Positions 2,906-41,598 of a stretch of DNA of 64,000 bases are shown here, piece after piece. The notes under the pieces were generated by a model. That model saw only the letters and a program-made list of their open reading frames with translations, did not search any database and was not told the DNA's origin. Made by a program: the position numbers and the translations under genes. Positions within the stretch are counted from its first letter, which is position 1. The number at the start of each line of letters is the position of its first letter. Source of the DNA: Candidatus Lloydbacteria bacterium (GTDB taxonomy: Bacteria > Patescibacteriota > Minisyncoccia > Phycocordibacterales > UBA6899); NCBI GenBank assembly GCA_043719805.1, contig JAYSTI010000001.1, positions 215,770 through 279,769 on the forward strand, read 5' to 3'.

Positions 2906-3973
2906 TTAGACGGTCTTCTTGGCTTCGTTTTTCGCTCGCTCAATCATGAAATGCACCACGGGGAGCATGTTGGTTTCCTGAAGCGCGATATGGGGATATT
3001 TGCGCGCAAAGACGCGGTATATCTCGTCGGCAAATGCCTGCCCCACAACCGGAACTTTAGCAAAATCAAAAACTATGACTTTAAATTTTTCCAAACCCGA
3101 AAGAATTCGACGTGCCTGAGAGCGTGAAATATGTACCCCTGCCGCCGCATAAAGGTTGACGCGGACTTCAGTCTTGTCAAAACCATAATCACTCTCATCC
3201 CCGATGTTCGTATATTTTCTAAACACATCACTTAAATGTTGCGATGCAGAAACGTTAAGTTGAAAGGTGACCCTCGTGCCCTTTTTTCGTTGTTTCACTT
3301 GCTCGATAAATACATCTTTAATTGTATTGTCCATGGTGACGCGATACCCAAAGCTCTCTAGGAGAAAGGTATCCCCTATCTTTGAAGTGAAAAATATACC
3401 TTCACCGGAATGAGACGTCGGCATTGTCGTCGTTTTCCCCTTTAAGAGATCCTGAATCGCCTCCAACTCCGAGTGGAGAGATTTCTTCTGCATGATATTT
3501 TTGAATATACCCACCCCGGAATCCTCGATGATAAACGTAAGTATTTTGCCGCGCGCCAACACGTCAACGTGTACTACTGTTGACCGTGAATGTTCGATCG
3601 CGTTGTTTAACATCTCGGAAAATGCAAATGCGAAAATACTTCTAATATTTTCCGGCATTTTTTTTAATTTGGAAAATTTACTTTCCACGTCGTTCAATAC
3701 ATTGTGTTCTTCAAGCGCGACATTTCGAAATGTTTTTGTGTATGACGCGGGAAAAATCTCCGGATGTTTTCGTGCGTATTCCGGAAGTACGTAAAATGCA
3801 CTTCTTGTAGACCCAATTTTTACAAGTCGCTGCTCACGAACAAGTTCTCCGACAAGTGCGCTTGCGTACTGTCGAGAAACACCAAAGGATGCGACGAGAT
3901 GGCTCGTGAGTATCTTCCCTACAGCTTTGCCTCTCTTCAATATTTCACCTTTCGTCAGCATGTTGCAAGACAA
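2906..3973 (-). CDS. HTH / histidine-kinase-like ATPase (HATPase_c) / C-terminal STAS-like (DUF4325-like) protein. Likely cassette cargo.
   Basis: N-terminal wHTH-like segment (GKILTSHLVASFGVSRQYASALVGELVREQRLVK). GHKL ATPase motifs (FSEMLNNAIEHS ... IIEDSGVGIF). C-terminal STAS-like segment (VIVFDFAKVPVVGQAFADEIYRVF). AT-rich. Flanked by the rmlB-like fragments. Confidence 0.55.
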   Translation of the reverse strand: MSCNMLTKGEILKRGKAVGKILTSHLVASFGVSRQYASALVGELVREQRLVKIGSTRSAFYVLPEYARKHPEIFPASYTKTFRNVALEEHNVLNDVESKFSKLKKMPENIRSIFAFAFSEMLNNAIEHSRSTVVHVDVLARGKILTFIIEDSGVGIFKNIMQKKSLHSELEAIQDLLKGKTTTMPTSHSGEGIFFTSKIGDTFLLESFGYRVTMDNTIKDVFIEQVKQRKKGTRVTFQLNVSASQHLSDVFRKYTNIGDESDYGFDKTEVRVNLYAAAGVHISRSQARRILSGLEKFKVIVFDFAKVPVVGQAFADEIYRVFARKYPHIALQETNMLPVVHFMIERAKNEAKKTV

Positions 3974-4044: not shown

Positions 4045-4140
4045 AACTTCGGAGCAACGACATCCGCTACGCCCTCGACTCATCCAAAGCCACCCGCGAA
4101 CTCGACTGGAAGTCGCTAAAGAATTTCGAGTAAGCACTCA
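4045..4140 (+). pseudogene. Orphan rmlB-like 3' fragment, copy B, with an in-frame stop
   Basis: Encodes IRYALDSSKATRELDWKSLKNFE*ALKETFSHYDTLG. Homologous to copies A and C but more diverged and interrupted by TAA. Confidence 0.5.
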
Positions 4141-4177
4141 AAGAAACGTTCAGCCACTATGACACTCTGGGGTGCAG

Positions 4178-4435
4178 CTACCGATAAACATCCTTGCGAT
4201 GCTGAATACGAAGGATGATTATGGCATGCCTATCGAGGTCGAAGATGATACGAAAATTGCCGACACGGAGACGATACTCCCCCGCAACATGATTATGTAA
4301 TTTCTTCGCCACTACGCCAATGTCGCCCAGCGAAGCAAAATGGACGAGCTTTTTATGCAATAGCCGTCGCACTGTTATGTTTTGTTTTTCAATATCCTTC
4401 TGCGCCCCCCTTGTGAACAATACTTTATACGGCAT
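4178..4435 (-). CDS. relE: RelE/ParE-family type II toxin
   Basis: 85 aa. GEYRLRVGNFRIIFDLDRHAIIILRIQHRKDVY matches the RelE/StbE core. The stop is 3 bp from the upstream antitoxin gene. Confidence 0.8.
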   Translation of the reverse strand: MPYKVLFTRGAQKDIEKQNITVRRLLHKKLVHFASLGDIGVVAKKLHNHVAGEYRLRVGNFRIIFDLDRHAIIILRIQHRKDVYR

Positions 4436-4438: not shown

Positions 4439-4693
4439 CTAGACAATGTCTGCAAAGAGGTCGTGCATGTTCACCACATCCCCTTTTGCGTACTCTTTGC
4501 GCGCAGTCCTGATGCTCGCCAAAAACACCTTGTCTCTTGCCGATAGAAGATCCTCAAACTCATCTATACCCATCAATACCGCAGTGGGAATAGCCCGCTC
4601 AGTGATTACAAGCGGCATCTTGCTTGATTTCACGTGATCCATACTTACCTTGAAATTACTTCGCAGTGCTGTGGCGTTGATTGTTTTTATCAT
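4439..4693 (-). CDS. Phd/YefM-family antitoxin
   Basis: 84 aa. Phd/YefM-like N-terminus (MIKTINATALRSNFKVSMDHVKSSKMPLVITERAIPTAVLMGIDEFEDL). Lies immediately upstream of the RelE-like gene on the same strand. Confidence 0.75.
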   Translation of the reverse strand: MIKTINATALRSNFKVSMDHVKSSKMPLVITERAIPTAVLMGIDEFEDLLSARDKVFLASIRTARKEYAKGDVVNMHDLFADIV

Positions 4694-4857: not shown

Positions 4858-5010
4858 GGCCTCGGCCACGATACCTTCCCGCACTACGGCAGACGGGTCC
4901 GCTACGCCCTTGATTCGCGTAAGGCCACGCGTGAGCTCTGCTGGAAACCACTGAAGGATTTTGAACAGGGGCTCAAAGAAACATTCGACCACTACCGCTC
5001 CCTCAAATAA
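4858..5010 (+). pseudogene. Orphan rmlB-like 3' fragment, copy C. Longest copy, about 50 codons.
   Basis: Encodes ...HYGRRVRYALDSRKATRELCWKPLKDFEQGLKETFDHYRSLK*. No N-terminal dehydratase body upstream (4700-4850 is non-coding and AT-rich). Confidence 0.55.
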
Positions 5011-5036
5011 CAAAACATCCGCGAGCGGATGTCTTG

Positions 5037-6292
5037 TTATTGGCACAATTTTTTATAATATTCAATTTGCTTCTCAATCAAGATGTTCTGGTCATAGTGG
5101 ACAAGCGCATGAGCCCTCGCTGCATCACTCATATCAGCCCACATTTCAGGATCTTCCATAAATTTGAGAATTGCATTCGCCATTGAATCGGGATTATTTT
5201 CTTCTCCGAGGTATCCGTTCTTTCCGTCCTCAACCTGCTCCGGAAAACCGCTGTGGCGTGTCGCCACCACGGGAAGTCCTGTCGCTAGTGCTTGTGAAAT
5301 TACTGTATTCATAATTATTATTCCATATCACCGTTCGCTGCGGTCTTCGACGTCTGCACGTACAACTGCATTTGTAAAAAATATTGAATGATATCTTCCA
5401 CCTTCATGTACCCCCTCCACTCAACTACATCCATTACGCCGAGCGAGGTCGCAAGATTGCGTAACTTTTCCTCCGCCTCCTTTGGCCCGCCCACAATGTG
5501 ACACACGAATTTTTGCTTGGCCTTCGACTTCAGAAGTGCCAGTGCGCGCAACAAATCATCAAACCCCTTTTTCTCAACAAAGCGGCCGACAGAGAGCATG
5601 TGAAAGATCCCATCTTTCGCAACCTCGCGCCTTGCAAACGGATACGAAACAACATCGATCGACACCGGCAGGGAAATAACCTTTGCGGGGTCAAACCCGA
5701 GTGCGACCACGCGTTCCTTCATGTTTTCCGACATCGTAAAGAAGAGAGATGCCTCATTGCGTAATCGATCGTAATAATGCACTCCTTTTTGCTGTATGCT
5801 TTGGCTCACGTCTGCCCCGTAGAAGGTAACGACCATACGTTGAGGTAACTTAAGAATCTCGCGAATGACAAGAAATTTATTCGCAATCGGCCCAAAATGA
5901 CAATGCACAAGATCAAATGCTTCTCCAATGAAGGGCTCAGCCCAAAAAATGGTTTTCCCCGACAGCGCATTGCGTCCATACTTGAATACGTTTGCCGCTC
6001 GTAAAAGTGCCATCGGATTCTTTGCGAGCAGATGAACCTTCTTCGGAATGATGTGTGCCATACGCGACAACAGCCCCTTTGGCATTTCGAGCACCTTAGT
6101 TCGTAATTGCATCTTGTGTGAAAAATATCGATCAGAGATATTCTCCAAACTTCCCTGCCTGAAAGTGAATATCGTCACATCAATCCCACGATCGATGAGG
6201 TCCGCAATCTGATTAATAATAAACGTCTCAGACACAACGGGAAATATCCCGACAACAAACGCAACGCGTATTTTCTTTGAATCAACTTTCAT
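5037..6292 (-). pseudogene. GT4 glycosyltransferase interrupted by a frameshift at about 5313-5318
   Basis: ORF 5318-6292 is a GT4 N-terminal domain. ORF 5037-5312 is a GT4 C-terminal domain (ALATGLPVVATRHSGFPEQVEDGKNGYL). The two are in different frames: ...ANGDME-taa taa, then ATG in the +2 frame, and reading through gives GIIIMNTVISQ. Confidence 0.65.
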
Positions 6293-8133: not shown

Positions 8134-9341
8134 GGGTGTGCTGCTGCGTAAGTCTTAAAATCTTCGTATTTTCGAATGTAATCTGGTTCGTCAAAATGGT
8201 CGGACGCAAGTACCAAGATAACGCAGTCTTTCGAAAATTGTCGCATGCTATGCCACAATTTTGGCCCCAGTCGAACACCAAAATCAGAAGAGTTAAGTAT
8301 GAACTTCTGATGTGTCGTTCCGTCATCGATGCGTAGCTGAAACGACCCACTTAAACAGAAGATAACCTGATCAAGCGTCTTGTGTGCATGTCCGCCACGC
8401 ACGGCATAAAAATCAGGGATGTCTTTTATCAGGTAAAAGCGCCTGATATCGAACGGTATACTCTTCTTCCCTTCTCCGGACATAAGTGTTCCTAATTCAG
8501 GGTTTTCCATGGAGGGGATCTGTACGATACCAGAATGTTTCACGCGAAGAGCAACTTTCTGCCCGACGGCAAACACCTCGAACCCCAAACGGCGGGAGAC
8601 TGACCTACCCGAAAGCAGATCGAGAAATTTCGTTCCCCGATTAATGGCACCGCCGATTAGCCTAAAGATTGGGTGGTGTATTTTCCATCGATAGACCCCG
8701 TAGGCAAAATAGAATCCGTCGATATTAATATTCTGCATGTAATATCGCTGAAACAGTTCCTGTAGTTCTCCACCTGAGAATGATCGCTCATGCCCATAGG
8801 AATATTCTTTCCCAAGTAGCCGTAACCCATTCTTGTACATAGTGTGCGGAAGATTCCATGAGTTCACTGCGGAGAGGATAAGCGTTCCCCCAGGTTTTAA
8901 TACGCGTATCATTTCTTTTACGGCATTTTGATACTGTGGGATATGCTGAATGACCGCATCACAAAACACAACATCGAATGCATCCTCGGCAAACGAGAGG
9001 CGGAAGGCATCTTCTTTTTGTACCGTCACATTAGTGAGGCCAAGTGCATTTTTGAGATTCATCATCCCCAAAATTGCAGTGTCCACAATGTCAGTAAGCG
9101 TCACGTGAGCGTCAGGAAACTCTGTGGCAAACTTTAATCCGTAACGCCCACTTCCTGCACCGATCTCCAAAATACTGCGTGCTCCTTCGGGAACGTACTT
9201 CTTAAACACAGGATACCCCTCAAGAAAAAGCCGCTGAAGAAAGATGTCATGCACACTCGGCGGATTGCCTCCCCACACCTCGCCCCACACGTCGTTGACT
9301 TGGTCTTGGGTGAGCGCTGGTTTTTTGTAATTATCCGTCAT
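8130..9341 (-). CDS. Fusion of a class I SAM methyltransferase with an FdtA/WxcM-like NDP-4-keto-6-deoxy-sugar 3,4-ketoisomerase (cupin)
   Basis: Motif I ILEIGAGSGRYG. C-terminal WxcM/FdtA-like cupin segment IPFDIRRFYLIKDIPDFYAVRGGHAHKTLDQVIFCLSGSFQLRIDDG. Probable start at MTDNYKK (9341); the ORF-track start is 9386. Confidence 0.75.
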   Translation of the reverse strand: MTDNYKKPALTQDQVNDVWGEVWGGNPPSVHDIFLQRLFLEGYPVFKKYVPEGARSILEIGAGSGRYGLKFATEFPDAHVTLTDIVDTAILGMMNLKNALGLTNVTVQKEDAFRLSFAEDAFDVVFCDAVIQHIPQYQNAVKEMIRVLKPGGTLILSAVNSWNLPHTMYKNGLRLLGKEYSYGHERSFSGGELQELFQRYYMQNINIDGFYFAYGVYRWKIHHPIFRLIGGAINRGTKFLDLLSGRSVSRRLGFEVFAVGQKVALRVKHSGIVQIPSMENPELGTLMSGEGKKSIPFDIRRFYLIKDIPDFYAVRGGHAHKTLDQVIFCLSGSFQLRIDDGTTHQKFILNSSDFGVRLGPKLWHSMRQFSKDCVILVLASDHFDEPDYIRKYEDFKTYAAAHP

Positions 9342-11027: not shown

Positions 11028-12293
11028 TTGTACGCCACCCACATGAGCTTACTTCATAATCAAATGAACAAACTTATCCGCTGGGGAGAGCGGAAGGCTC
11101 AAACTGACCTGCGCTACGTGCTGCATGGCGGTTTTTGGCTTTTTGTGGGGCAGGTGGGGGGGGGTGTCACGGCAATTTTTCTTGCCATCGGATACGCGCA
11201 TTATCTCCCCAAGGAGGTCTACGGAACATACAAATACATTTTATCGGTCTTCGGAATACTCTCGCTCTTTTCTCTGACGGGGATGGACACAGCAGTGCAA
11301 CGCGGGATAGCACAGGGAAAAGATGCGATCTTTTGGAAAACATTCCGCCTGCGAGTCATGAGCTGCACGATTGCAGTGCTCGTCTGTGTGGCATTTGGCG
11401 TTTATTATTTTACAAACGGGAACAGGGAGCTTGCAACGCTGTTTTTTGTTTCTGCTCCATTCCTGCTACTCCTCGACCCGCTATCCCATTATAACTCTCT
11501 CCTAGTCGGGAGAAAGCTCTTTCGCGAGAGCTCGAAACTCAGCATCATTCTTCAAGTCGGATCGGCACTTATTATGCTCGGAGTCATTTATCTTACAAGA
11601 AACGTGCTGGGGATAATTTTGGCATATCTCTTTGCAACGCTACTCCTTCGAGGTGGTATTTTTTTGTATGTTACGAGTAGACACCCGCTCAACAAAATTG
11701 AGGACAAAGAATCTTTTCAATTCGGCAAACACCTGACGGCAATGAGCGTTCTTGCGACCATCAGTGGCCGACTGGATGCAATAGTCCTCTTTCATTTTCT
11801 TGGACCCGCAGCACTCGCAGTATATTCTTTTGCGCAAGCCGCCGTGAGCAATATTCAAAATTCGTTCAAGCTCATCACCACAACCCTAGCATTCCCCAAA
11901 ATGGCCGCCCAAGACAAGGAGGTCATAAAAAAAACATTGCTCCGCAAGGTGCGGATTGCGCATTATTTCACAGTCCCCTTGTCCATTGCCGCCATCTTCA
12001 TTATTCCATATTTTTTCCAGATATTCTTTCCAAAATATCTTGAATCAATCCCCTATGCACAAGTAATGACTGGACTACTAGCATTTTCGCCTTTACGTTT
12101 TATTTCAACAGCAATCACTGCAAAGGCCTCGGTAAAAATTTACTATACACTTGCGATCAGTAACCCGATCATTACGAGCGCTGGACTTCTCGTCTGCGTG
12201 CCACTCTGGGGAATTTGGGGTGCAATCATGGCCCTTGCAGTACAGCAATTCGTCGGAAATGTGCTCGCGCTTTATCTATTTAAGAAAATGTAA
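11028..12293 (+). CDS. wzx: Wzx/RfbX-like (MOP superfamily) oligosaccharide flippase
   Basis: About 420 aa polytopic membrane protein. N-terminal region typical of polysaccharide biosynthesis protein family flippases. About 12 predicted TM segments. Confidence 0.7.
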   Translation: MYATHMSLLHNQMNKLIRWGERKAQTDLRYVLHGGFWLFVGQVGGGVTAIFLAIGYAHYLPKEVYGTYKYILSVFGILSLFSLTGMDTAVQRGIAQGKDAIFWKTFRLRVMSCTIAVLVCVAFGVYYFTNGNRELATLFFVSAPFLLLLDPLSHYNSLLVGRKLFRESSKLSIILQVGSALIMLGVIYLTRNVLGIILAYLFATLLLRGGIFLYVTSRHPLNKIEDKESFQFGKHLTAMSVLATISGRLDAIVLFHFLGPAALAVYSFAQAAVSNIQNSFKLITTTLAFPKMAAQDKEVIKKTLLRKVRIAHYFTVPLSIAAIFIIPYFFQIFFPKYLESIPYAQVMTGLLAFSPLRFISTAITAKASVKIYYTLAISNPIITSAGLLVCVPLWGIWGAIMALAVQQFVGNVLALYLFKKM

Positions 12294-12350
12294 ACATCAA
12301 GATTTTCGCATGATGTCCATTTGGCAAACGTGCTAAGAATACGGTGATTT

Positions 12351-13235
12351 TCAATTTAAAATTTCCGTGAGTGACGTACGAGAAATATCAGTTTTGGAAT
12401 AAGCCTCCCAGAGACGTTCGTCGTCCTTCCCGCCCAGCATCTGAAATCGACGATAACCCAATGACTTGAGTTTGTCGCGCAACCCCTGAACATTCCCCCC
12501 GAGATTGGCAATGTCTGTGGGATGAAATTCAATAAAGAGCGTTGGTGCATCGTCCCGCACCAATGACTCGGGGAGGTTGTTGATTACAAAATACTCGGCC
12601 CCCTCGATGTCCATCTTAATAAGCGTTGGCATACCAAACTCCTGAAAATAACCATCAAGCGCCCTAGTGCGCACCTCAAGTGGAGGGGCAGACGCTTTTT
12701 TGTTGACCGACTCTTGCGATTTAAATATCTTTCCTACGCCAAAATTCCCCTCACGGTGCGGATAAAACGTTACTGTTCCTTCTTTACCAGAAACTGCCTC
12801 AGGGACAACGGTTATTCGTTCCGAAAGATGATTCAATTCAATATTGCAAGATAGCCACTCTTGCATTTCCGGGCAAGGCTCAAATGAGTAGATGCGTGCA
12901 CCATGCGATGCAGCAAGGATAGAATAATATCCAATATTTGCCCCAATATCATAAAGTACCGTATCACTACCGATCAAACTAAGAAATATCTGCACTTGGG
13001 TATTTTCAAAATCACCGGAATAGTACATTCGCTTACCTAGCGACTCACCGGTAAAGATCTTCAGTTTTATTCCATTTGCATTAACCACGGTAGAAAAATT
13101 GCGCATACCAGGAGGCATCATTGTGAGCATTTTTGAAGCAAGCTTCGGATGCACGTTCCGCATTATCCAACCTACCGTCCATGGAATGGCGTGGCCGTCT
13201 TTGATTGCGCTTTTGGGAGTCAACATAATGGTCAA
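12351..13235 (-). CDS. FkbM-family methyltransferase
   Basis: YDIGANIGYYS and KMDIEGAEYFV motifs characteristic of the FkbM family (Methyltransf_21). Confidence 0.8.
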   Translation of the reverse strand: MTIMLTPKSAIKDGHAIPWTVGWIMRNVHPKLASKMLTMMPPGMRNFSTVVNANGIKLKIFTGESLGKRMYYSGDFENTQVQIFLSLIGSDTVLYDIGANIGYYSILAASHGARIYSFEPCPEMQEWLSCNIELNHLSERITVVPEAVSGKEGTVTFYPHREGNFGVGKIFKSQESVNKKASAPPLEVRTRALDGYFQEFGMPTLIKMDIEGAEYFVINNLPESLVRDDAPTLFIEFHPTDIANLGGNVQGLRDKLKSLGYRRFQMLGGKDDERLWEAYSKTDISRTSLTEILN

Positions 13236-13318
13236 TTATACACACGACCGGTTTGCGGCACAAGCCGTCTTCCTACTCCATTTCAAGAGTAATACAGTAG
13301 CAAATATCGAAATTTTGA

Positions 13319-14194
13319 TTATCTCTTCAGGCAAGTATATAGCCAGTGAAAAAGATAACGTGGATTTTTACTTAGCAAAAATGCTTTCATGAAATATTGT
13401 TTTGCTTTTTCTGATTGTCCGGCATCACGGCACCACAGCGCAAGCCAGAAAATAAGCAGAGCGAGCTCGCGTGGATGCTGTGCATATAAAACCATATGCT
13501 TCTCGAGGAGTAGCTCTCTCCCCTTGATGCGCCGATCCAAGTTGCCTCCGATGTGCTCACCGCGCGCCGAGAGCATGTTCATACGCACAAGAGGCTTCGC
13601 GATGCCTATTCCTTTGTATTTCTGACCGATTCGCAACAAAAGATCGATCTCCTGGTGGCTCGGGAGTGACGCGTCAAACATACCGACATCCGCAAAAACT
13701 GAACGCCGAACCACGAGCGAGCTCGTGAGAAATCCTTTGAACCGGATGAGTATGATAGGTAGAAAATTGCGGACTCCGGGTACGACACGATTCACAACCT
13801 CGCCATTATCGGTAGTATTTGACACGCTCGTAACGGAGAATCCTACGTCTGGAGCAGTTTTCGTGAACTCCTCCAGTTGCAGGGCCAACTTCTCCGGCAA
13901 CCATTCGTCGTCGTCATCAAGAAACGCCACATACTTCCCCTTCGACTCACTAATGCCCACATTTCGCGTTGCTCCACCACCACGTTTTGGCGGGTCATTT
14001 TTAAGATATCGGATTCTTGGATCATGAAAACTCCCTACGACGTCCCTCGCCCCTATCTTATCTCCATCATCGACGACGACAATTTCGTAGTCGGTGAATG
14101 TCTGAGCCAATACGGATCGTAAGGCTCGCGCAACGAGCTCAGGGCGATTGAATGTCGGAACGACGACGGAAACGAGTGGTGATGATGTGGCCAT
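13319..14194 (-). CDS. GT2-family glycosyltransferase
   Basis: VSVVVPTFNRPELVARALRSVLAQTF...EIVVVDDG...VAFLDDDDEW: GT-A DXD-type motifs. Confidence 0.8.
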   Translation of the reverse strand: MATSSPLVSVVVPTFNRPELVARALRSVLAQTFTDYEIVVVDDGDKIGARDVVGSFHDPRIRYLKNDPPKRGGGATRNVGISESKGKYVAFLDDDDEWLPEKLALQLEEFTKTAPDVGFSVTSVSNTTDNGEVVNRVVPGVRNFLPIILIRFKGFLTSSLVVRRSVFADVGMFDASLPSHQEIDLLLRIGQKYKGIGIAKPLVRMNMLSARGEHIGGNLDRRIKGRELLLEKHMVLYAQHPRELALLIFWLALWCRDAGQSEKAKQYFMKAFLLSKNPRYLFHWLYTCLKR

Positions 14195-14268
14195 ATATTA
14201 GGAAAGCTTCACATTAAATTTTTTTACCCAAACTGAGAATTGTACGTTGGAAGTCTGCATTTAGTCTT
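14143..14268. repeat. Junction repeat copy 1: 5' end and leader of the GT2 gene plus a relic of the asnB 3' end
   Basis: About 94% identical to 15796-15927. Contains the GT2 start (MATSSPLVSVVVPTFNRP) on the minus strand, plus ttaggaaagcttcacattaaattttttt, which encodes ...VWVKKFNVKLS* (the asnB C-terminus) on the minus strand. A further degenerate partial copy lies at 14276-14325. Confidence 0.7.
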
Positions 14269-14401
14269 GCCCTCGAGCTCGCAGCGGTTGAATGTTGAAA
14301 TTACGACGGAAACACGGAGCATGGTGCTCTTTATAACCGACAAATAAGGTTATGGGTAGTATGGTGATAAACAAAGCACATTCTCGGATATTGTGTTCTT
14401 G

Positions 14402-15109
14402 TTAATTTTCTCCATCAAGAGCGAGTCTGAGAAAGAAAATAGCTTCGGTGCGTAATTTTGTGCGCACCCAATCCTTTTCCTTTTCTGTATGCAAAAGCTC
14501 ACCAAGACCGGAAAGCATGTCTCTATCCGCAACCAGATCCAAAGAATCGATTAATTTTTGCAGAACGACTTTGTAAGAAAGTCCGGTACGCATCTCAATT
14601 ATTCGCGCGTTAATCGGCCAGCTGTTCTTGCAAAAAAACCAAACATCAAAAATATCACGATTTGCGGTGTCTCCTCGCTCGTACATAGCCACTATTTTAT
14701 GAGCAAAGATGTCTTCCCGCGTCATCACCTTCATTGCAATTCCAAGATGCTCCTTGACTTCATATGTTGAGCCAAATTGTCGGGAACTAATGTCTATTTT
14801 TACATTCTGTGCCCAGGCCTCTTTGTTGGCATATGAAAGATTAAAAAATAAATTTTCGTACTTGTTGTCTTGATTTTTAATTTCACCGTACTGTGCCAAT
14901 ATCTGCCCAACTCGCTCAAATACGTATTCTCTTTTCTCTATATCGAGAAGGTCAAAATCGAGATCTACAGAAAAACGAGGAAGGTTGTAGAAAAGATACA
15001 CTGCCGTTCCTCCCTTAAATCCCAGAAAAGGACCGATGGTTGAATCAGAAAAAACATCCTTAAGAATCCGTATCAAAATCGCCCTATGTGTGGGAATGTG
15101 TAATGTCAT
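14402..15109 (-). CDS. abiEii: AbiEii/AbiGii-family nucleotidyltransferase toxin (type IV TA / abortive infection)
   Basis: LGFKGGTAVYLFYNLPRFSVDLDFDLL matches the GGTAL...R.S.DLDF signature of AbiEii/DUF1814 nucleotidyltransferases. AT-rich. Confidence 0.75.
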   Translation of the reverse strand: MTLHIPTHRAILIRILKDVFSDSTIGPFLGFKGGTAVYLFYNLPRFSVDLDFDLLDIEKREYVFERVGQILAQYGEIKNQDNKYENLFFNLSYANKEAWAQNVKIDISSRQFGSTYEVKEHLGIAMKVMTREDIFAHKIVAMYERGDTANRDIFDVWFFCKNSWPINARIIEMRTGLSYKVVLQKLIDSLDLVADRDMLSGLGELLHTEKEKDWVRTKLRTEAIFFLRLALDGEN

Positions 15110-15110
15110 A

Positions 15111-15737
15111 CTATTTTACTGACTTCGCTAATTTATTAACGGTTTCTTCCATGCGCTTATTTCCGTCATAAATAGGCAAAAGTGCGTAAACCTTTTCCCA
15201 ATTAATGGGGCGTAAATTATCAAAATGATAGCGTTTGTTGAGGTAGAGTACATCCAAAAATGCGCGCTCTGTGGATGCAATACTATATCCTGCTTCATTT
15301 GCCATTCCGAGATTGCTCGTGAGGATATTTTCTTTCACCCTTCGAAAAGAATATTTTTGACTACCAAGGGTTAACTCTTTTGACTGGTATGATGCAAGAA
15401 ATATTTGTGAGTAATACTGAAAAGTAACACCGGCGGAACCGAGAACCGTTTCGAAGCTAATGTACGATGGAATGAATATTTTCGTAGCAAGTTCATTCTT
15501 GTTATAATCATTATCTTTCGCGTAGAGACCCCGTCGGAGCCGCAGGAGTTTCCCCGCTTTCGCATATGAGTTTAATCGCACCCTTACTGCGTTTGTTCCC
15601 TCTTCGCCCCAAAGCAAAGCGATCTCTTTGTTTGAAAAGACTGTTTTTGGAGACCGAAGTAAAATTTCCAAATATTCACCCTTTGTAGCTTTTTTGTTCA
15701 TAATGTCGCTGGAAGTTAGCTTAAAGCTAACTTCCAA
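15111..15737 (-). CDS. abiEi: AbiEi-family antitoxin / transcriptional regulator
   Basis: N-terminal AbiEi_4-like wHTH (KGEYLEILLRSPKTVFSNKEIALLWGEEGTNAVRVRLNSYAKAGKLLRLRRGLYA). Immediately upstream of abiEii with a 1-bp gap. Confidence 0.7.
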   Translation of the reverse strand: MEVSFKLTSSDIMNKKATKGEYLEILLRSPKTVFSNKEIALLWGEEGTNAVRVRLNSYAKAGKLLRLRRGLYAKDNDYNKNELATKIFIPSYISFETVLGSAGVTFQYYSQIFLASYQSKELTLGSQKYSFRRVKENILTSNLGMANEAGYSIASTERAFLDVLYLNKRYHFDNLRPINWEKVYALLPIYDGNKRMEETVNKLAKSVK

Positions 15738-15795
15738 CTCTTATTATTGCATATTTTCAGAAACATTGCAAGTGCGGGGCAAGATTGTCCGCCCG

Positions 15796-15927
15796 GCCAT
15801 GGGGGCGATTGAATGTCGGGATGACGACGGAAACGAGTGGTGATGATGTGGCCATATATTAGGAAAGCTTCACATTAAATTTTTTTACCCAAAATGGGAA
15901 TTGTACATTGGAAGTCTGCATTTAGTC
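15796..15927. repeat. Junction repeat copy 2: duplicated GT2 5' fragment plus asnB 3' relic
   Basis: Minus strand encodes MATSSPLVSVVIPTFNRP followed by out-of-context sequence. Contains ttaggaaagcttcacattaaattttttt as in copy 1. A third, genuine copy of the asnB 3' end is at 16483-16556. Confidence 0.7.
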
Positions 15928-15982
15928 TTGCTGTAGTCACCATGTCGCGCAATGACAAAATATATTTTCTCGCACGGCATCC

Positions 15983-16246
15983 TTACTCCGAATAAAAGTA
16001 TTTGCGAAGTGTCTCATCGGACACATAGGCAAGTGCTTGCACATATATTGCACGAAGTGTCCCCGCTCGAATAGTGGTATGGTTTGGAATTATTAGGGTT
16101 TGCTTACGTCCGTCAATCGTGCGCCTCAATTTTATGTGCCCGCCACACTGGTTGAGCACAAGGAAATCGTTTGACACAAAAAATTTCACCAGATCACCGC
16201 CGGAAACATCTTTTAACTTAGGCATAATCAAGCTGTGGCACTTCAA
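15983..16246 (-). CDS. hicA: HicA-family mRNA interferase toxin
   Basis: 87 aa. MPKLKDVSGGDLVKFFVSNDFLVLNQCGGHIKLRR...TLIIPNHTTIRAGTLRAIYVQA matches the YcfA/HicA fold signature. Confidence 0.7.
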   Translation of the reverse strand: MKCHSLIMPKLKDVSGGDLVKFFVSNDFLVLNQCGGHIKLRRTIDGRKQTLIIPNHTTIRAGTLRAIYVQALAYVSDETLRKYFYSE

Positions 16247-16448
16247 TGTTCATCAGTAGTGAGGGGTGACTCGAAAGCCCAAGCTCGGCAAGATTCTCAC
16301 CTTCCACGTACAACAAGGTCGCCTCGCGAATATTTTCCTGTAAAGCATCGAGGGTATCCGCCTCGGTAACAATGGGATGACCAACGGCAGTGGCGACATA
16401 GTAGCCCTCGTGTTCTCGTGAAATAGAAAATTGAATAATATTTTTCAT
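16218..16448 (-). CDS. hicB: HicB-family antitoxin (short form)
   Basis: 76 aa. YYVATAVGHPIVTEADTLDALQENIREATLLYVEG matches the HicB/UPF0150 N-terminal domain. Overlaps hicA by 29 bp. Confidence 0.6.
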   Translation of the reverse strand: MKNIIQFSISREHEGYYVATAVGHPIVTEADTLDALQENIREATLLYVEGENLAELGLSSHPSLLMNIEVPQLDYA

Positions 16449-16490
16449 ACATGCATCATAACACGAGTTCAGCAGAAAATCAAAACTATT

Positions 16491-18350
16491 TTAGGAAAGC
16501 TTCACATTGAATTTTTTTGCCCAGACTTGGAATTGGACGATGGGGAGGAACTCCATGAGGTCTGCTTTCTCGAAGTGGACTTTTCCGTCGAGCGACCGCT
16601 TCTTGAGTGTGACAAAATCAAAAAGCTCTGCTGTGGGAGGGTAATACTCGGGGGTAAGAACGTCTCTCACCATCGCTCCAAATTCCCCCGACATCCATTC
16701 CGCTATCGGGGCGTTCCAACCGGTCTTCTTTTTATTGAGAATATAATCAGGGAGTTTTCCTTTGTATGCCTCCCGCACAAGTGATTTTTTCCCCATTCGC
16801 AATTTTTCCTGAGACGGTATGCCGTTCGCATAGCACACGAGGTCATTCGCGAGAAACGGAAACCTCCCTTCCATGCCAAAATGCATAATGACTTTATCGG
16901 TCCGCATGAATTCTTCGTTCGCAAGCCAGAACCATCGATCAAGTTCTGCAATCGCATTTACACGATCCCCGAGCGGGTCACTGAGCGGAGGAATGTCGGT
17001 ACCGAGAAAACTCCGCGTCGCATCCACCATGTCAAAACCATTCATAAAACGAAATGCGGGATTTCCGGAAGGAGGCGTAATTTTGTTCACGTATGCCCAC
17101 AACGAAATGTCTTCCCCGAGATGTAATATGTGTCCTGGTTTTACAAACCCACTCTTGAATCCCTCAACCGTGTACCGCGCGTCAAGAAGAAATTTTGGGT
17201 AGCGTTCATATTTTGCGGCTATATTTTTTGCATTCTGGTATCTCGGATAGCCCAAAAAGAGTTCGTCGCCGCCCGAACCATTGAGCACAACAGTGATGTC
17301 TTTTGATGCCATTTGTGCCAAGAGCCAATATGCGGGAACAGATGGGTTGTACCTTGGCTCTTCCATGGCCAAAATTGCCGCCTCATAAGTATCAATGAAC
17401 ATGCGCTCAGTAACAAGAAGCTCGTGATGAGCGATACGATAATCATCTGCAAGCCTCGCGGCAAGGTCTGCGTCTTCGTTGAACCTTGCATCTTTTGCCT
17501 CAAAGCGGGTTGTGTAGGTGTTCACCATCCCTCGCTCGCTCTCAGCGAGCTCATGGAGTATCACCGTTGAATCGAGTCCCCCGGAAAGAAAGAGTCCAAA
17601 CGGTCGCAGTCCCATGGTGTGCCCACGCACAGAATCACCAAATTTTTGCCGAAGCGCGGCAGGCGAGAACACTGCGTCCTTATCAATGCGGTCACTCCAC
17701 CCAAACCATTCATCACGCTCCTTGCCTGACGCAAGGTCAACCTCTTTCCATGAACCGGGTGGCAACTTTGATATGCCACTGACGAGCGTCTCCTTCGTCG
17801 GAGTATATCCGAACACAAAAAACGAGCGCGCCACTTCAATATTGAGAACCCGCGGCACGCCATAAGCAAAAAGTCCGCGCATTTCCGAAGAAAAGACAAG
17901 CGCCTCGTCATGGCGAGCCATGTAAAGTGGCTTCATCCCGGCGCGGTCGCGGGCCAAAAACACTTTTTGCTTTCGTTTGTCATAAAATGCGATGGCGAAC
18001 ATGCCGTCGAGACGAGAAAAATATGAAGGCCCATGACGCATCAGTCCTTCAAATATCACCTCCGTATCTCCGTCCGTGTGAAAAATTGCCCCCTCCCCCT
18101 CAAGTTCTTTTCTGAGTGTCTTGTAATTATAAATTTCACCGTTATAGACGAGGACATAATTCCCATCTTTTGATTCGTACGGCTGCTTGGCATTGACCGG
18201 AGTTTCTGTGATGGCAAGAAGATTCTGTCCGAATGTCACGTGCTCGTCACGAAATACCCCGACACCGTCGGGCCCGCGGTGCTTCGTCGCCTCGTTCATG
18301 CGCTCGATGCCGCCCGTCTCTTTTTTTAATATGCCGTTTATTCCACACAT
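16491..18350 (-). CDS. asnB: Asparagine synthase (glutamine-hydrolysing)-type amidotransferase, as found in glycan clusters
   Basis: Starts MCGI (Ntn class II glutamine amidotransferase nucleophile Cys2). 619 aa. AsnB synthetase-domain SGGLDS motif. Confidence 0.9.
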   Translation of the reverse strand: MCGINGILKKETGGIERMNEATKHRGPDGVGVFRDEHVTFGQNLLAITETPVNAKQPYESKDGNYVLVYNGEIYNYKTLRKELEGEGAIFHTDGDTEVIFEGLMRHGPSYFSRLDGMFAIAFYDKRKQKVFLARDRAGMKPLYMARHDEALVFSSEMRGLFAYGVPRVLNIEVARSFFVFGYTPTKETLVSGISKLPPGSWKEVDLASGKERDEWFGWSDRIDKDAVFSPAALRQKFGDSVRGHTMGLRPFGLFLSGGLDSTVILHELAESERGMVNTYTTRFEAKDARFNEDADLAARLADDYRIAHHELLVTERMFIDTYEAAILAMEEPRYNPSVPAYWLLAQMASKDITVVLNGSGGDELFLGYPRYQNAKNIAAKYERYPKFLLDARYTVEGFKSGFVKPGHILHLGEDISLWAYVNKITPPSGNPAFRFMNGFDMVDATRSFLGTDIPPLSDPLGDRVNAIAELDRWFWLANEEFMRTDKVIMHFGMEGRFPFLANDLVCYANGIPSQEKLRMGKKSLVREAYKGKLPDYILNKKKTGWNAPIAEWMSGEFGAMVRDVLTPEYYPPTAELFDFVTLKKRSLDGKVHFEKADLMEFLPIVQFQVWAKKFNVKLS

Positions 18351-18351
18351 A

Positions 18352-19131
18352 CTAGTTGTCGCCGAATAAACGACGCATGCGCTTCATTGCCCCGATGCGC
18401 AGTGAATTTATCTTTTTTGCCGGAGAAAGGTAATGATTGAGACGTTTGAAATATACATTCTCGCCCCCATCAAGCGGGATATAGTTGAAATGAAGTCCGG
18501 TTTTCCATGCCGAATAATTAAAACTCATCTGGTCGCGCTTTGTCCATGTGACCAACTCCTGCCACCATGCTTCCATCGCGCTCTGCACGTCAAGCTCATT
18601 ATGCCGTCGCAAAAGCAGGAGCGTCCAAGCCAATCCTGACGTATCGGGGTATCCCAAGGTGCGATACGCTTCTCCTTGTTTCCGCACAAGCTCCGGGTCT
18701 TCCTGGTGTTTTCCTGCGCGCTCCATGCGGAGCAATCTCTCTTCTTCCTCAGCTAGCGTATGTGCCGGGACCTTTTCACAGGCAGCCTGATCTATGACCG
18801 CGAGATTCGCGTCGGCAAGATAATCACGCACAAGTTCATTAAAATCTCCGCGAATGAGCACATTACCATCGACCCAAATACTTGTGCGGTACTCCGGAAG
18901 AAATTTATGCACGAGGATCTTATATTTGCGAGCACTGCGTGTTGGATCTTTCTCCGGAGGCGAGACACGACGAACTTGCCACATCCGTGACTGAATATCC
19001 TGATCGGTGAAACAGATAAGATCACAATTCGCAGGAAGAAATGAAGGGACAACGAGGTCGTCTTTCTTGCCAAAAATCGCCGTGTAGATAACGATGCGAT
19101 TCGGATCGATGGTGCTGCCGTTTGATTCCAT
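18352..19131 (-). CDS. DUF616 (TOD1/MUCI70-like) putative glycosyltransferase
   Basis: IVIYTAIFGKKDDL...CFTD pattern typical of DUF616. No other recognisable domain. Confidence 0.5.
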   Translation of the reverse strand: MESNGSTIDPNRIVIYTAIFGKKDDLVVPSFLPANCDLICFTDQDIQSRMWQVRRVSPPEKDPTRSARKYKILVHKFLPEYRTSIWVDGNVLIRGDFNELVRDYLADANLAVIDQAACEKVPAHTLAEEEERLLRMERAGKHQEDPELVRKQGEAYRTLGYPDTSGLAWTLLLLRRHNELDVQSAMEAWWQELVTWTKRDQMSFNYSAWKTGLHFNYIPLDGGENVYFKRLNHYLSPAKKINSLRIGAMKRMRRLFGDN

Positions 19132-28943: not shown

Positions 28944-28997
28944 GCATAGGTCAAGCAACACTTGTGGGTCGCGGTGCTCATCGGTATAGTTATGTGC

Positions 28998-30167
28998 ATG
29001 AATCTCCATGAGTACGAAGGTAAGGAGCTCCTCAGGCGGGGTGGCATTGAGATTCCGCGTGGGAAACTTTTTGACGGGTCAGATGCCCCCCCAGAATTAG
29101 CATATCCCGTCTTCGTGAAGGCTCAGATACTTGCGGGCAGGCGAATGAGCTCAGGTGGAATCATGATTGCACGAGACTATGAGGAATTGGCTCTTGCAAC
29201 AACCAAGCTGCTCGGAAGTACGCTGGCGGACAGGATAGTCAAGGATGTGCTCGTTGAAGAGGCGGTTGCCTTTACCGGTCAGGAACATTTTGTCTCTTTT
29301 TCATGTGACACAAAGACTAGGACGTTCGTGTGCACAACCTCCGATGAGGGCGGTACGGGAATAGAGGAGCGGCCGGTGCAGAGGTTTGTCATTGATTACG
29401 AAAATCCTCAATTCGACAACAGCGCAGTTCCGCGCGCGGTTCTCGAAAAACTCTTTGATATATTTTGTGTGAATGATTGCATTCTCCTTGAGGTCAACCC
29501 ACTCGTTCACTGCCTTGATACCGACACCTGGGTAGCGCTTGATGCAAAGATCGTCATCGACGATTTCGCGTTGCCACGACACCCGGAATTCACTTTCTCT
29601 GAGCGCACGAACACTCCAGGAAACATCAGAACATCACGGGAAATAGCCGCTCAAAAAATTGACCATGGAGATCATCGCGGTAGTGCGGGCTCATCGTATG
29701 TCGACCTCGACGGGAACATCGGGATGCTCCCCTCCGGTGGAGGGGCATCACTCATTGCGATGGATGCACTCTTTCAAAATGGCGGGAGGCCGGCAAACTA
29801 TACTGAATATTCGGGAAACCCCACAAAAGAGAAAGTGGAAAAACTTGTTTCCATCGTTATATCAAAACCCGGACTTCACGCGCTGTGGGTGGTTGGAGCT
29901 GTCGCAAATTTCACCGACATTTATGAAACTCTGAGTGGCCTCGTCCTTGGACTACGTGCCGCACGAAATAATTTATCACTTCCCATTGACTACCCCATCA
30001 TCATCCGCCGAGGGGGGCCACGTGATGAGGAGGCATACGCGATGCTTCGTGAGGTAACGGATTTCGACCTACATCTTTTTGGAGAAGAAACAAGCATCGA
30101 ACAGTCGGCGAAGGAAGTGATGAAATTAGCCCAAGCGTATGCAAATAAACAAACTCATACCAAATAA
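28998..30167 (+). CDS. Succinyl-CoA synthetase beta (SucC)-like ATP-grasp subunit. Candidate citryl-CoA synthetase / ATP-citrate lyase-like.
   Basis: Starts MNLHEYEGKELLRRGGIEIPRG (compare SucC MNLHEYQAKQLF). ATP-grasp plus ligase-CoA domain layout. Confidence 0.75.
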   Translation: MNLHEYEGKELLRRGGIEIPRGKLFDGSDAPPELAYPVFVKAQILAGRRMSSGGIMIARDYEELALATTKLLGSTLADRIVKDVLVEEAVAFTGQEHFVSFSCDTKTRTFVCTTSDEGGTGIEERPVQRFVIDYENPQFDNSAVPRAVLEKLFDIFCVNDCILLEVNPLVHCLDTDTWVALDAKIVIDDFALPRHPEFTFSERTNTPGNIRTSREIAAQKIDHGDHRGSAGSSYVDLDGNIGMLPSGGGASLIAMDALFQNGGRPANYTEYSGNPTKEKVEKLVSIVISKPGLHALWVVGAVANFTDIYETLSGLVLGLRAARNNLSLPIDYPIIIRRGGPRDEEAYAMLREVTDFDLHLFGEETSIEQSAKEVMKLAQAYANKQTHTK

Positions 30168-31056
30168 TCCGCGTGTACTTATTCAAGGAATAACAGGCAA
30201 GGAGGGCATGCGTGCGATGCGTGCGATGCGTGCTTACGGAACAAACGTCATCGGTGGGGTCACCCCGAGGAAGGGCGGGCAAATCGTGGAGGGCGTCCCT
30301 GTTTGGAACACAATTAGCGAAGCGATACGCGAAGGCGGGCCAATTAACATGGTTGTCCAATTCGTTCCACAGCAAGGCGTTCTCAACGCAACAAAAGAAG
30401 CACTAGATTTCGATATCCCCTTCATTCTCGTTGGAGCAGAAAAAGTTCCAATACACGACACTATTCACATACATCGCCTTGCGAACAAAAAGGGAGCAAT
30501 TCTCATTGGGCCAGGCTCGGTCGGGATGATCGTCCCCCACTTGAGGCTCAAGATCGGAATGATTGGCGGCGATACCCCTGAACGAGTATTTGCACCAGGT
30601 CGAATTGCCATACTGTCAAAGTCCGGTGGCATGACTTCAGAAATAGCCCTTGCGCTCAAGCAAAGTGGACTCGGAGTGTCTCTGGCGTGCGGAGTCGGAG
30701 GAGAAAGAATCACCGGAAGCGATTTTGCCGACCTGTTAATCGCACTTGAAAATGACGAAAGTACCGCCGCGACCATCATCTTCGGTGAGGTTGGTGGATT
30801 CGCCGAAGAGCGAGTTGCCGAAAAGGCTTCTCGTGGGTTGTTCAAGAAACCTATTATTGCGCTCACTGTCGGCGAGTTCATCGCGAATCTTTCGCACGAA
30901 GCCCCCTTTGGGCACACCGGCGCGATAATGGAAAATGGTCACGGCGGAGTCCTGGAAAAACGGGATGCCCTTAGGAGGGCGGGCGTGCACGTCGTGGAGC
31001 GTCTTGATGAAATTGCGCCGCTTCTTGTGCGCCTATCAAATAATGAGTTATCCTAA
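30139..31056 (+). CDS. Succinyl-CoA synthetase alpha (SucD)-like CoA-binding subunit
   Basis: VLIQGITGKEG...AYGTNVIGGVTPRKGG...PVWNTISEA and GMIGGD...ILSKSGGMTSEI match SucD/CcsA/AclA N-terminal halves. Confidence 0.75.
   Translation: MQINKLIPNNPRVLIQGITGKEGMRAMRAMRAYGTNVIGGVTPRKGGQIVEGVPVWNTISEAIREGGPINMVVQFVPQQGVLNATKEALDFDIPFILVGAEKVPIHDTIHIHRLANKKGAILIGPGSVGMIVPHLRLKIGMIGGDTPERVFAPGRIAILSKSGGMTSEIALALKQSGLGVSLACGVGGERITGSDFADLLIALENDESTAATIIFGEVGGFAEERVAEKASRGLFKKPIIALTVGEFIANLSHEAPFGHTGAIMENGHGGVLEKRDALRRAGVHVVERLDEIAPLLVRLSNNELS
30208..30234 (+). repeat. Perfect 9-bp tandem repeat (atgcgtgcg x3, the last copy ending gct) inside the SucD-like gene, encoding MRAMRAMRA
   Basis: Directly visible as ggcatgcgtgcgatgcgtgcgatgcgtgcttac. 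Confidence 0.8.
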
Positions 31057-31060
31057 TTAT

Positions 31061-31726
31061 ATGACAACCGTAACTCACAAAAATGACGAACCCTGGTTCG
31101 GCGACACCCCCCTCATCAGCGCTGCACAGGACAAAACTTTTATTGCAATGATATTTGAGATGTTCTCCGGAAAAATGCCGACGAAATACGAAGGTGAGCT
31201 TTTCGAGCTTTTACTCAAGCTCTCAATCGATCATGGGACCAATACGCCCTCCGCAAAAACAACGATAATGCGAGCGGGAGAAAAAAGAGCAATGGGTGAT
31301 GCGGTCGGCGCAGGAATTGCAGAGATCAATAATGCCCACGGAGGTGCAACGGGGCCTGCGATGAGCATGTTTTATGAAACGAAAGAATCAGGAAATTGTG
31401 GGCGTAATGTTGTTGCGAATTTTGAGATACACAAAGAACGCGTACCGGGTTTTGGTCATCGTATATACAAAAAAGACCCACGTGCCGAACTTATTCTGGA
31501 AACCATCGTACGCCTGGGCTTCCCCGATACGTACATCGACCTTGCCCGCGAACTAGAAAAGGAGCTGGCGGAAAGTTTGCCTCATAAGATTCTTCCGCTC
31601 AATATCGACGGGGCGATTGCCGTCGCGCTATGCACGCTCAGATGGAGGCCGGAGTGGAGTACTGCAGTCTTTATCTCATCCCGCAGTGCGGGGCTCTGTG
31701 CTCACTATCTCAATACTGCGCGATGA
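31061..31726 (+). CDS. Citrate-synthase-like small protein (citryl-CoA lyase / ACL C-terminal-domain-like)
   Basis: VPGFGHRIYKKDPRAELI is the citrate synthase/citryl-CoA lyase signature (GFGHRVYK..DPR). About 220 aa. Start overlaps the end of the SucD-like gene (ATG at 31043 or 31061). Confidence 0.6.
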   Translation: MTTVTHKNDEPWFGDTPLISAAQDKTFIAMIFEMFSGKMPTKYEGELFELLLKLSIDHGTNTPSAKTTIMRAGEKRAMGDAVGAGIAEINNAHGGATGPAMSMFYETKESGNCGRNVVANFEIHKERVPGFGHRIYKKDPRAELILETIVRLGFPDTYIDLARELEKELAESLPHKILPLNIDGAIAVALCTLRWRPEWSTAVFISSRSAGLCAHYLNTAR

Positions 31727-41212: not shown

Positions 41213-41229
41213 AATTATAGAATGGCCGC

Positions 41230-41598
41230 ATGACACACACACCGAGAGAGCTCCCATCCGTCATACTTAAACAAAAAGATGCATATGTGCTTTGGCTCAA
41301 ACTGCACAGGGATTTCCCAAAGGTTGAGCGGCTCGGCATTGGACAGAAAATAGAGCAATCATTTCTTGCGGTACTCGAATATACGTTTACCTCAGCTTAT
41401 CTTCCACCCAACCAAAAGATTGTCCTTCTTGGAAAAACTATTTCTCGGCTCGATGTACTCAAATTTTTTCTGCAGCTCGCATGGGAAAGTAAGCTCATCC
41501 CGACGGAAAAATATGCCGATCTTTCGGAGCGACTTGAAGAAATCGGTCGCATGCTCGGCGGATGGCGAAAAGGATTGCTCAACAAAACTCCCACCTGA
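41230..41598 (+). CDS. avd: Four-helix-bundle Avd-like (DGR accessory variability determinant / 23S-IVS protein family)
   Basis: 122 aa. Helical protein resembling Avd/IVS four-helix-bundle proteins (YVLWLKLHRDFPKVERLGIGQKIEQSFLAVLEYTFTSAY ... LDVLKFFLQLAWESKLI). Lies between the RT and the TR. Unusually, divergent from the RT. Confidence 0.6.
   Translation: MTHTPRELPSVILKQKDAYVLWLKLHRDFPKVERLGIGQKIEQSFLAVLEYTFTSAYLPPNQKIVLLGKTISRLDVLKFFLQLAWESKLIPTEKYADLSERLEEIGRMLGGWRKGLLNKTPT

Follow-up and report, generated by a model that had tools for sequence, protein, structure and literature searches.

A probable array of recombination scars with toxin-antitoxin cassettes at the asnB|GT2 junction of a Patescibacterium surface-glycan cluster

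In a surface-glycan cluster of a Candidatus Lloydbacteria bacterium, two toxin-antitoxin (TA) modules, hicBA and abiEi/abiEii, lie between asnB, which encodes a glutamine-hydrolysing asparagine synthase, and a gene for a family 2 glycosyltransferase (GT2), bordered by partial copies of the ends of these two host genes. The locus is part of a 64,000-nt stretch of DNA (GenBank assembly GCA_043719805.1, contig JAYSTI010000001.1, positions 215,770 to 279,769), referred to here as the window, within which all positions are numbered. On balance we favor the reading that the locus is an array of recombination scars, left by host recombination at a conserved asnB|GT2 junction in this member of the Parcubacteria group (candidate phyla radiation, CPR; Patescibacteria). 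How TA and other small defense modules spread without mobility genes of their own is a recurring question. The locus has four gene-end stubs that can be dated, relatives have the site empty, and related cassettes occur elsewhere; together these would provide an ordered record of at least three acquisitions in one Patescibacterium.

The asnB|GT2 junction is ancestral and both TA modules are insertions, since the closest relatives have asnB followed by GT2 after only 3 to 5 nt. The comparison was made from the genomic contexts of GT2 homologues. In the nearest relative (L085/L086) a 619-aa asnB stops 3 nt before the GT2 ATG, and in the Lloydbacteria contigs L087-L090 the order is TOD1, asnB, 5 nt, GT2, the window likewise having TOD1 next to asnB. 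The aligned empty junctions read ...VQFQVWA(K/R).F...*, 3-5 nt, M..(K)VS(I/V)VIPT.NRP, an arrangement that is kept in the two junction copies (A and B) described below. Those relatives that have names belong to the Parcubacteria group of CPR, among them Lloydbacteria and Kaiserbacteria; the nearest GT2 in the searched collections is 64% identical, and no sister strain of the species was found in them. An exact look-up of the GT2 protein gave no match. A genome-contig scan with asnB gave matches of at most 33% identity among those listed, and no orthologous junction among them. The initial annotation of this DNA had taken the junction as ancestral and the modules as inserted, and had proposed a comparison with orthologous junctions, which now bears it out. 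Its picture of a junction duplicated at least twice proved too simple in view of the foreign allele in one copy, the decay shared by two others and a stub found in another genome, all described below.

Every gene of the asnB-to-GT2 region lies on the minus strand, and the locus is described here in that direction. The intact asnB (16491-18350, 619 aa; Pfam Asn_synthase 2e-59 and GATase_7; TIGR01536 356 bits against a cutoff of 267) is followed after a 42-nt gap by hicB (16448-16218, 76 aa), which overlaps hicA (16225-15983, 80 aa) by 8 nt; the hicBA cassette, delimited from promoter to stop by Pfam, a promoter scan and DNA homology, covers 15983-16485. A 51-nt spacer without homology to other hicBA loci (15932-15982) separates the hicA stop from copy B (15803-15931), which consists of an asnB 3' relic (15931-15859, with its stop at 15861-15859), the trinucleotide TAT and a stub of GT2 codons 1-18 (15855-15802). 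Next comes a segment of about 28-29 nt, stub r (15774-15801), which stands where GT2 codons 19-27 would be, with a poor match to GT2, and was placed by alignments to copy A and to contig L092; the stub in B and stub r together form an 82-nt GT2 5' fragment fused to the abiE cassette. That cassette (14323-15773, from promoter through a 79-nt 3' flank; delimited by PADLOC, Pfam, a promoter scan and identity to L092) carries abiEi (15701-15111, 196 aa) and abiEii (15109-14402, 235 aa). It is followed by copy D (14272-14322), a 17-codon GT2 5' end (MLRVSVVISTFNRCELE) of another allele, which abuts the asnB relic of copy A (14142-14270). Copy A contains that relic (14270-14198), TAT and the first 53 nt of the functional GT2, which is intact (13319-14194, 291 aa; Pfam Glycos_transf_2 4e-30) and 100% identical as a protein to P0001, on the 284,620-nt NCBI contig that includes the window. 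The identities of GT2, AbiEii, AbiEi, HicA and the asparagine synthase hold by Pfam, PADLOC and NCBIfam. The cargo had been called AT-rich relative to its flanks, which is so for abiE (GC 0.38-0.39 against 0.46-0.52 in the flanks) and only marginally so for hicBA (0.43-0.49).

Copies A and B are 129 nt long and identical at 124 positions (96%), with mismatches at 14159, 14161, 14233, 14236 and 14246 and an identical 71-nt core at 14162-14232. On the minus strand both read ...VQF(S/P)(V/F)WVKKFNVKLS*, then TAT, then MATSSPLVSVV(V/I)PTFNRP. A third copy, C, is the live asnB end itself (16487-16543, including 4 nt past the stop), which matches only the asnB part of A (86% identity over 57 nt). 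When at most 3 mismatches are allowed, a 35-nt core pattern occurs at just three places in the window, where 100 shuffles gave an expectation of 0. The repeat was thus real as first annotated (14143-14268 and 15796-15927, about 94% identical), with the start at 15796 about 7 nt too far out and the identity set slightly low; its content, a relic of the asnB C-terminus and the first 18 codons of GT2, was as described, and so was the live asnB 3' end as a further copy. An apparent extension of the relic in B further into asnB than that in A, into the 51-nt spacer, was rejected, as 274 of 1000 shuffles gave an equal score.

Copy D has a different origin. Positions 14274-14313 are 80% identical to GT2 codons 8-21 over 40 nt, with an ATG of their own at 14322, and the leader is 3 residues long (MLR-VSVVI...), like that of the GT2 orthologues P0015 and P0074, compared with 7 residues in A (MATSSPL-VSVVV...). 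Because leader length and N-terminus differ, D is not a copy of A; it is a GT2 5' end from a different allele. A degenerate partial GT2 copy had been placed at 14276-14325: a GT2 5' end is indeed there, and it was the notion of a copy that failed. The order of ages follows from the identities, which make the A/B event the youngest (96% for A/B, against 86% for C and the relic and 80% for D and A). A and B also carry a common 1-nt insertion and a deletion of about 14 nt relative to the live asnB end, which places the decay of the asnB relic before the origin of the 129-nt A/B copy. In their GT2 parts A and B differ at two sites of a single codon (GTT and ATC, V/I), and the ATC of the stub in B is the consensus in relatives; on the basis of just these two sites, this suggests allelic variation and not random decay.

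The arrangement was compared with independent assemblies; the initial annotation had proposed a check of read-pair or long-read support. Runs SRR23617208 and SRR23617209 yielded three Logan contigs that match the window at 100% identity. Two of them, L082 (from upstream of asnB) and L084 (from 16875 within asnB), run through hicBA into B, and the third runs from the GT2 stub of B through abiE and D into A. These contigs independently reproduce every unique junction and the copy-specific single-nucleotide polymorphisms (SNPs) of A and B. The contigs end exactly 30 nt (k-1) into the 71-nt core, which is the expected behavior of a k=31 graph at a repeat, and the phase across the core lies outside them. 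This leaves a foothold for an assembly mis-resolution, in which the chromosome would have one junction, asnB-hicBA-J-GT2 (J being the junction repeat), and a 1661-nt unit [J-abiE-D] would be a separate circle or belong to a co-occurring strain. We find this hard to credit: two runs yield independent contigs in which SNPs specific to A and to B border the core, the window belongs to the 284,620-nt contig, and a 1.66-kb circle would be without a replication gene. A 71-nt repeat is, moreover, shorter than an ordinary read and than the large k-mers used by metagenome assemblers. As a separate observation, L084 (window 16875-15864, SRR23617209) begins inside asnB, 385 nt before its stop; this could reflect low coverage or a strain-variant branch point, and hence a possible recombination breakpoint.

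PADLOC detects both AbiE proteins (AbiEi 1e-59; AbiEii 2.2e-73, over its full length). AbiEii also matches Pfam PF08843 (DUF1814 nucleotidyltransferase) above the cutoff (1.2e-24), has 235 aa compared with 234-235 aa in the family, and contains KGGTA and SVDLDFD, which we take to be nucleotidyltransferase-like motifs; the matches of AbiEi to Pfam AbiEi_4 and NCBIfam models are sub-threshold. The two genes are separated by 1 nt and preceded by a promoter-like TTGCAA-17-AATAAT (15771-15743). A palindrome with 12-bp arms (15736-15710) between the -10 hexamer and the abiEi ATG is probably the AbiEi operator. From their family matches the AbiE and HicA(B) proteins appear to be ordinary family members, and their toxin or abortive function is predicted.

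A second abiE cassette next to a GT2 stub was found in L092, a contig from another sample whose match to the window, 90.5% identical in nucleotides, extends from 15773 to 14326, where the contig ends. Directly left of its abiE is an in-frame GT2 5' fragment of another allele (...MPTVSVVIPTFNRPDLIGRAI.., P0034 type), fused at the same cassette base ('|ACTTGC', the -35 element) and at the equivalent GT2 position, around nt 82, if a one-codon indel is allowed for. The gene upstream of this stub is not asnB. Four-fold degenerate sites in abiEi are 76% identical between the window and L092, a neutral divergence of about 24%, and because of this stub r could still share descent with the L092 stub. 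The simplest reading would be that abiE entered the GT2 5' end once, before the window and L092 lineages split, giving stub-abiE-GT2.

Elsewhere the abiE cassette occurs in many settings. AbiEii homologues number in the thousands across CPR, many of them on contigs of 1-2.5 kb; a metagenome scan for AbiEi yielded no more than 6 loci, none above 66% identity, and viral contig scans for AbiEii and for the junction gave no match. In L093 and L094 the abiE core, comprising the promoter, palindromic operator and both genes, is 72-75% identical in nucleotides and sits in unrelated contexts with no repeats, with a large serine recombinase 2 kb away in L093. Of nine abiE loci screened in other genomes, five had no flanking repeat.

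The hicBA cassette, too, occurs at other sites. HicA matches HicA_toxin (PF07927, 9.2e-8, 32.5 bits against a cutoff of 27). The 76-aa HicB has weak matches only (PDB 2yzt E=0.086, DUF1902 E=0.043) and an 82% homologue, P0245, that is annotated as HicB family; its tentative assignment as hicB draws on operon position and this weak similarity. A promoter-like TTGATT-17-TATGAT lies at 16483-16455. Homology to the hicBA cassettes of L085, L103 and L104 runs from the -35 hexamer (16483-16485), which lies 5-7 nt beyond the asnB stop, to the hicA stop (15985-16005). In L085 the cassette (8400-8761, with a 5'-truncated hicA) lies between SxtJ and DUF5989 genes of the same cluster that has the empty asnB|GT2 junction; in L104 (6001-6466) it lies between two GT1 genes of a syntenic cluster, with 66-77% nucleotide identity to the window; and in L103 (5001-5466) it follows an ACPS gene, the upstream ACPS ORF (open reading frame) crossing the cassette promoter and stopping on the hicB ATG. 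All three sites share the left boundary of the window at the -35 TTGATT, two of them (L085, L104) being in homologous glycan clusters, and none of the three has flanking repeats. Both hicBA and abiE thus behave as mobile units, each extending from promoter to stop and found at different sites.

As first annotated, neither an integrase nor a transposase is present in the insert, where all four ORFs are TA genes, or among the approximately 55 window ORFs scanned. These ORFs make up a large glycan-synthesis region, in which the sole mobility-type enzyme is the reverse transcriptase of a diversity-generating retroelement (see below). A repeat scan of 12000-19000 revealed no inverted repeats within the locus besides the abiE operator palindrome; the other inverted pairs were one at 12513 with the asnB end (76%, 21 nt) and a 20-nt palindrome inside asnB. 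An insertion sequence or transposon was rejected, given inserted ORFs that are all TA genes, the lack of inverted repeats in the locus and flanking repeats made of 57-129 nt of host gene ends. An integron cassette was rejected because the repeats find their homologue in the asnB|GT2 junction of relatives, no integrase is among the window ORFs scanned and the cassettes have promoter-like sites of their own. As each cassette brings its own -35 promoter element, an RNA-mediated (retro) copy was also rejected.

The same theme of duplicated gene ends had been noted at 2.7-5.0 kb, and here too the observation stands. Three orphan 3' ends of an NAD-dependent epimerase/dehydratase gene, identified by repeats and Pfam, lie on the plus strand at 2759-2870 (T1), 4071-4182 (T2) and 4906-5017 (T3), with TA and other genes on the minus strand among them: an HTH-HATPase_c-DUF4325 gene (2906-3973), ParE (4178-4435) and Phd (4439-4693). 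There is no intact parent gene in the window. T1 and T3 differ mostly at third codon positions ([4,1,10]; 9 synonymous and 3 non-synonymous codons, P=0.0085), and T3 and T2 also show a third-position excess (P=0.003). The mostly synonymous differences mean that the relics diverged under purifying selection, as parts of functional alleles in different lineages, and T1, T2 and T3 are therefore leftovers of imported or displaced alleles, not duplicates made in situ. Such divergence is as expected if incoming segments of allele plus cargo incompletely replaced the resident gene. The codon-position test used here separates the leftover of a displaced allele from a decayed duplicate and could be applied across metagenomes. 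Beside this array, a GT4/GT1 glycosyltransferase gene (5037-6292) appears to be broken up into two minus-strand ORFs, an N-terminal one of 324 aa (5318-6292) and a C-terminal one of 91 aa (5037-5312); it is possibly a pseudogene or a frameshift.

From these observations we infer a mechanism and an order of events. DNA from a related lineage would pair homologously in a conserved flank, the asnB 3' end or the GT2 5' end, and its other end would be joined by illegitimate or short-homology recombination. Such events would be homology-facilitated illegitimate recombination ('displacement') or an equivalent ends-in, Campbell-type single crossover, carried out by the host's recombination machinery with no element-encoded recombinase, and each would leave a dead stub of the flanking gene beside the live copy. 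Displacement by homology-facilitated illegitimate recombination, with the 3' ends of the displaced genes persisting, has been described for the type VI secretion system (T6SS) arrays of V. cholerae, and the same hypothesis has been noted for Rhs (PMC5361080). Natural competence and homologous integration have been demonstrated in Patescibacteria (PMC10633639).

At the present locus, hicBA (about 0.5 kb) and abiEi/abiEii (about 1.45 kb) would have entered separately, in at least three host-recombination events. In the first, hicBA would have landed just past the asnB stop, leaving a 57-73-nt asnB 3' stub before GT2, which then decayed. In the second, before the split from the lineage of the L092 cassette, abiE would have entered the GT2 5' end and come to lie between an 82-nt stub (left) and a GT2 5' end (right). 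In the third and younger step, a unit made up of the asnB stub, TAT and GT2 would have been placed behind the truncated GT2 5' end D, yielding A and B. The history could have run as two right-anchored displacements, as an ends-in (Campbell) integration of a [J-abiE-D] circle from a sibling lineage, or as a tandem duplication of the 1661-nt unit whose second copy then lost abiE. Plausibly the stubs are retained because asnB and GT2 are only 3 nt apart, and viable insertions would keep both the asnB end and the native upstream sequence of GT2. The initial annotation had offered a recurrent cassette-acquisition mechanism or repeated recombination with variant alleles; we find no evidence for a dedicated mechanism, and recombination with variant alleles fits better.

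Several observations weigh against this scheme. Homologous pairing over 50-80-nt stretches of 80% identity is expected to be inefficient, and a GCTCGA microhomology visible at the D|A junction has no statistical support. The asnB relic differs from the live end at codon positions [3,4,4], with no synonymous bias over few sites, so duplication in situ followed by decay fits it as well as displacement does; for this relic and for D the codon-position test rests on too few sites. Fusion of the same cassette base to the same GT2 position in two alleles could indicate a site preference. In L099 (1382-1419 and 2780-2817) and L100, one arrangement recovered from two samples, abiE lies between perfect 38-nt copies of a host terminator or intergenic segment, and in L101 (~366-460 and ~1808-1900) it is flanked by a repeat of about 95 nt, consisting of the abiEii 3' end and downstream sequence and 92% identical over a 63-nt BLAST match. 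These repeats look like true insertion duplications or remnants of tandem duplication and are poorly explained by one-sided illegitimate replacement. Finally, neither a donor nor an intermediate state was observed among the relatives, whose nearest GT2 is 64% identical.

Part of this evidence would be explained if the junction had been tandemly duplicated in situ, by slippage, unequal sister exchange or template switching of the fork-stalling (FoSTeS) or microhomology-mediated break-induced replication (MMBIR) type. The cassettes would then have landed between the copies or been copied in during a template switch, with variable target duplications of 38-130 nt. The 96% identity of A and B with their common relic indels agrees with this, as does the D|A junction, which is built like the joint of a tandem duplication (GT2 codon ~21 meets the asnB relic at its start), and so do the lack of synonymous bias in the asnB relic and the local repeats around other abiE cassettes (perfect 38 nt in L099/L100, about 95 nt in L101). 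Duplication in situ does not account for D, which is a different GT2 allele, nor for a stub that also precedes abiE in L092 as yet another allele; selection in other lineages shaped the divergence of the sister-array relics, and five of the nine abiE loci and all other hicBA sites have no flanking repeat. We therefore consider it the less likely account, though one with a real chance of being right.

The repeats could also be read as attL and attR sites left by tandem accretion of integrase-less elements resembling cis-mobilizable elements (CIMEs), integrated into the asnB 3' and GT2 5' ends by a tyrosine or serine recombinase acting in trans. Cargo modules arrayed with direct repeats between them, the same cassette base at the same GT2 position in two genomes and the serine recombinase near the L093 cassette are all in line with such an origin. 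Against it, the repeats vary in extent with the cargo: that of hicBA holds the asnB part only, that of abiE spans 129 nt of both genes, and D is GT2 only. The repeats found elsewhere are of 38, about 95 and 129 nt and unrelated in sequence, hicBA occupies three other sites with no repeats at all, the insert and the approximately 55 window ORFs hold no recombinase, and the scan of 12000-19000 gave no inverted repeat within the locus besides the operator palindrome. Accretion of an integrase island or CIME was rejected on the grounds that boundaries vary in extent and sequence by cargo and no recombinase is among the window ORFs scanned; one acting in trans might still be encoded elsewhere in the genome, and site-specific integration as a whole appears very improbable.

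A more specific mechanism is kept alive by the repeats of L099-L101 and the shared GT2 insertion point. The promoter-to-stop TA cassettes of CPR bacteria (abiE, hicBA, parE-phd) might move by a dedicated route whose long target duplications vary in length (38, about 95 and 129 nt). Circularised cassettes might integrate ends-in following natural transformation, or replication might switch template onto single-stranded DNA brought in from outside, and the route may favor gene boundaries, the conserved GT2 5' end being one. We regard such a route as unlikely.

Other features of the window were noted along the way. A complete diversity-generating retroelement is present at 40214-42703, with a reverse transcriptase (40214-41257, minus strand), bAvd (41230-41598, plus strand), a template repeat (41619-41745) and a variable repeat (42063-42189) at the 3' end of the target ORF (42038-42703, minus strand). 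All 11 mismatches between the two repeats fall at T on the plus strand, corresponding to A on the coding strand, which is the adenine-specific signature.

A 75-nt element occurs twice on the minus strand (52198-52272 and 53011-53085, 77% identical), each copy behind a TTGACA-N17-TATAAT-like site and before a LigT-like 208-aa ORF or a 266-aa ORF. The consensus folds with 20 pairs and 3 compensatory changes between the copies, and no Rfam family matched it at the gathering threshold. The element is a candidate for an unnamed cis-regulatory leader RNA; as a third example of a gene-end scar it was rejected, being a promoter-proximal structured element with compensatory changes. At 28962-31726 on the plus strand, three adjacent ORFs carry ATP-grasp_2/Citrate_bind, CoA_binding/Succ_CoA_lig and Citrate_synt C-terminal domains. 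They correspond to ATP-citrate-lyase or citryl-CoA-type enzymes, unexpected company in a CPR surface-sugar cluster.

Compared with known systems, the cargo is conventional. The gene pairs resemble AbiE type IV and HicAB type II TA systems in size, order and family matches, and in the palindromic operator between promoter and abiEi; the difference lies in HicB, which is short (76 aa) and has no recognisable DNA-binding domain or significant profile match. Chromosomal integron arrays likewise hold small cargo, often TA modules, with repeats of about 60-130 nt in between, but there the repeats are attC hairpins, whereas here they are host gene ends, no IntI was found in the window and the cassettes have their own promoters. 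In the lpl cluster of S. aureus the unit of evolution comprises the 3' end of one ORF, the intergenic sequence and the next ORF's 5' end (PMC2568036). The recombining or duplicated unit crosses a gene boundary there as the junction repeat does here; in lpl, tandem paralogues recombine at a central conserved region, while here two unrelated genes and foreign cargo are involved. A Campbell-type single crossover gives an insert with direct repeats equal to the shared homology, as A and B are around abiE, and the 71-nt core could serve for the crossover. No circular intermediate was seen, and the circle would already have to hold the decayed asnB relic and could come only from a sibling lineage, and D and stub r would need extra events.

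The closest parallels are the V. cholerae T6SS effector-immunity arrays and the orphan C-terminal arrays of Rhs and contact-dependent inhibition (CDI) systems, where likewise a conserved gene is the homologous anchor and no recombinase is encoded by the element (PMC5361080). In both, incoming modules would push older material along, and truncated ends of displaced genes alternate with small modules. The anchors of the present locus differ in being housekeeping glycan-synthesis genes and not a polymorphic toxin gene, its cargo consists of unrelated TA modules in place of cognate immunity genes, and one of its repeat units spans a gene 3' end, 3 intergenic nt and the 5' end of the next gene. For those arrays and for this locus alike, the mechanism has been reached by inference. 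The locus would accordingly be a further example of a known phenomenon, and not a new system or kind of mobile element, and the array at 2.7-5.0 kb, whose relics diverged while parts of functional alleles, fits the T6SS and Rhs arrays closely.

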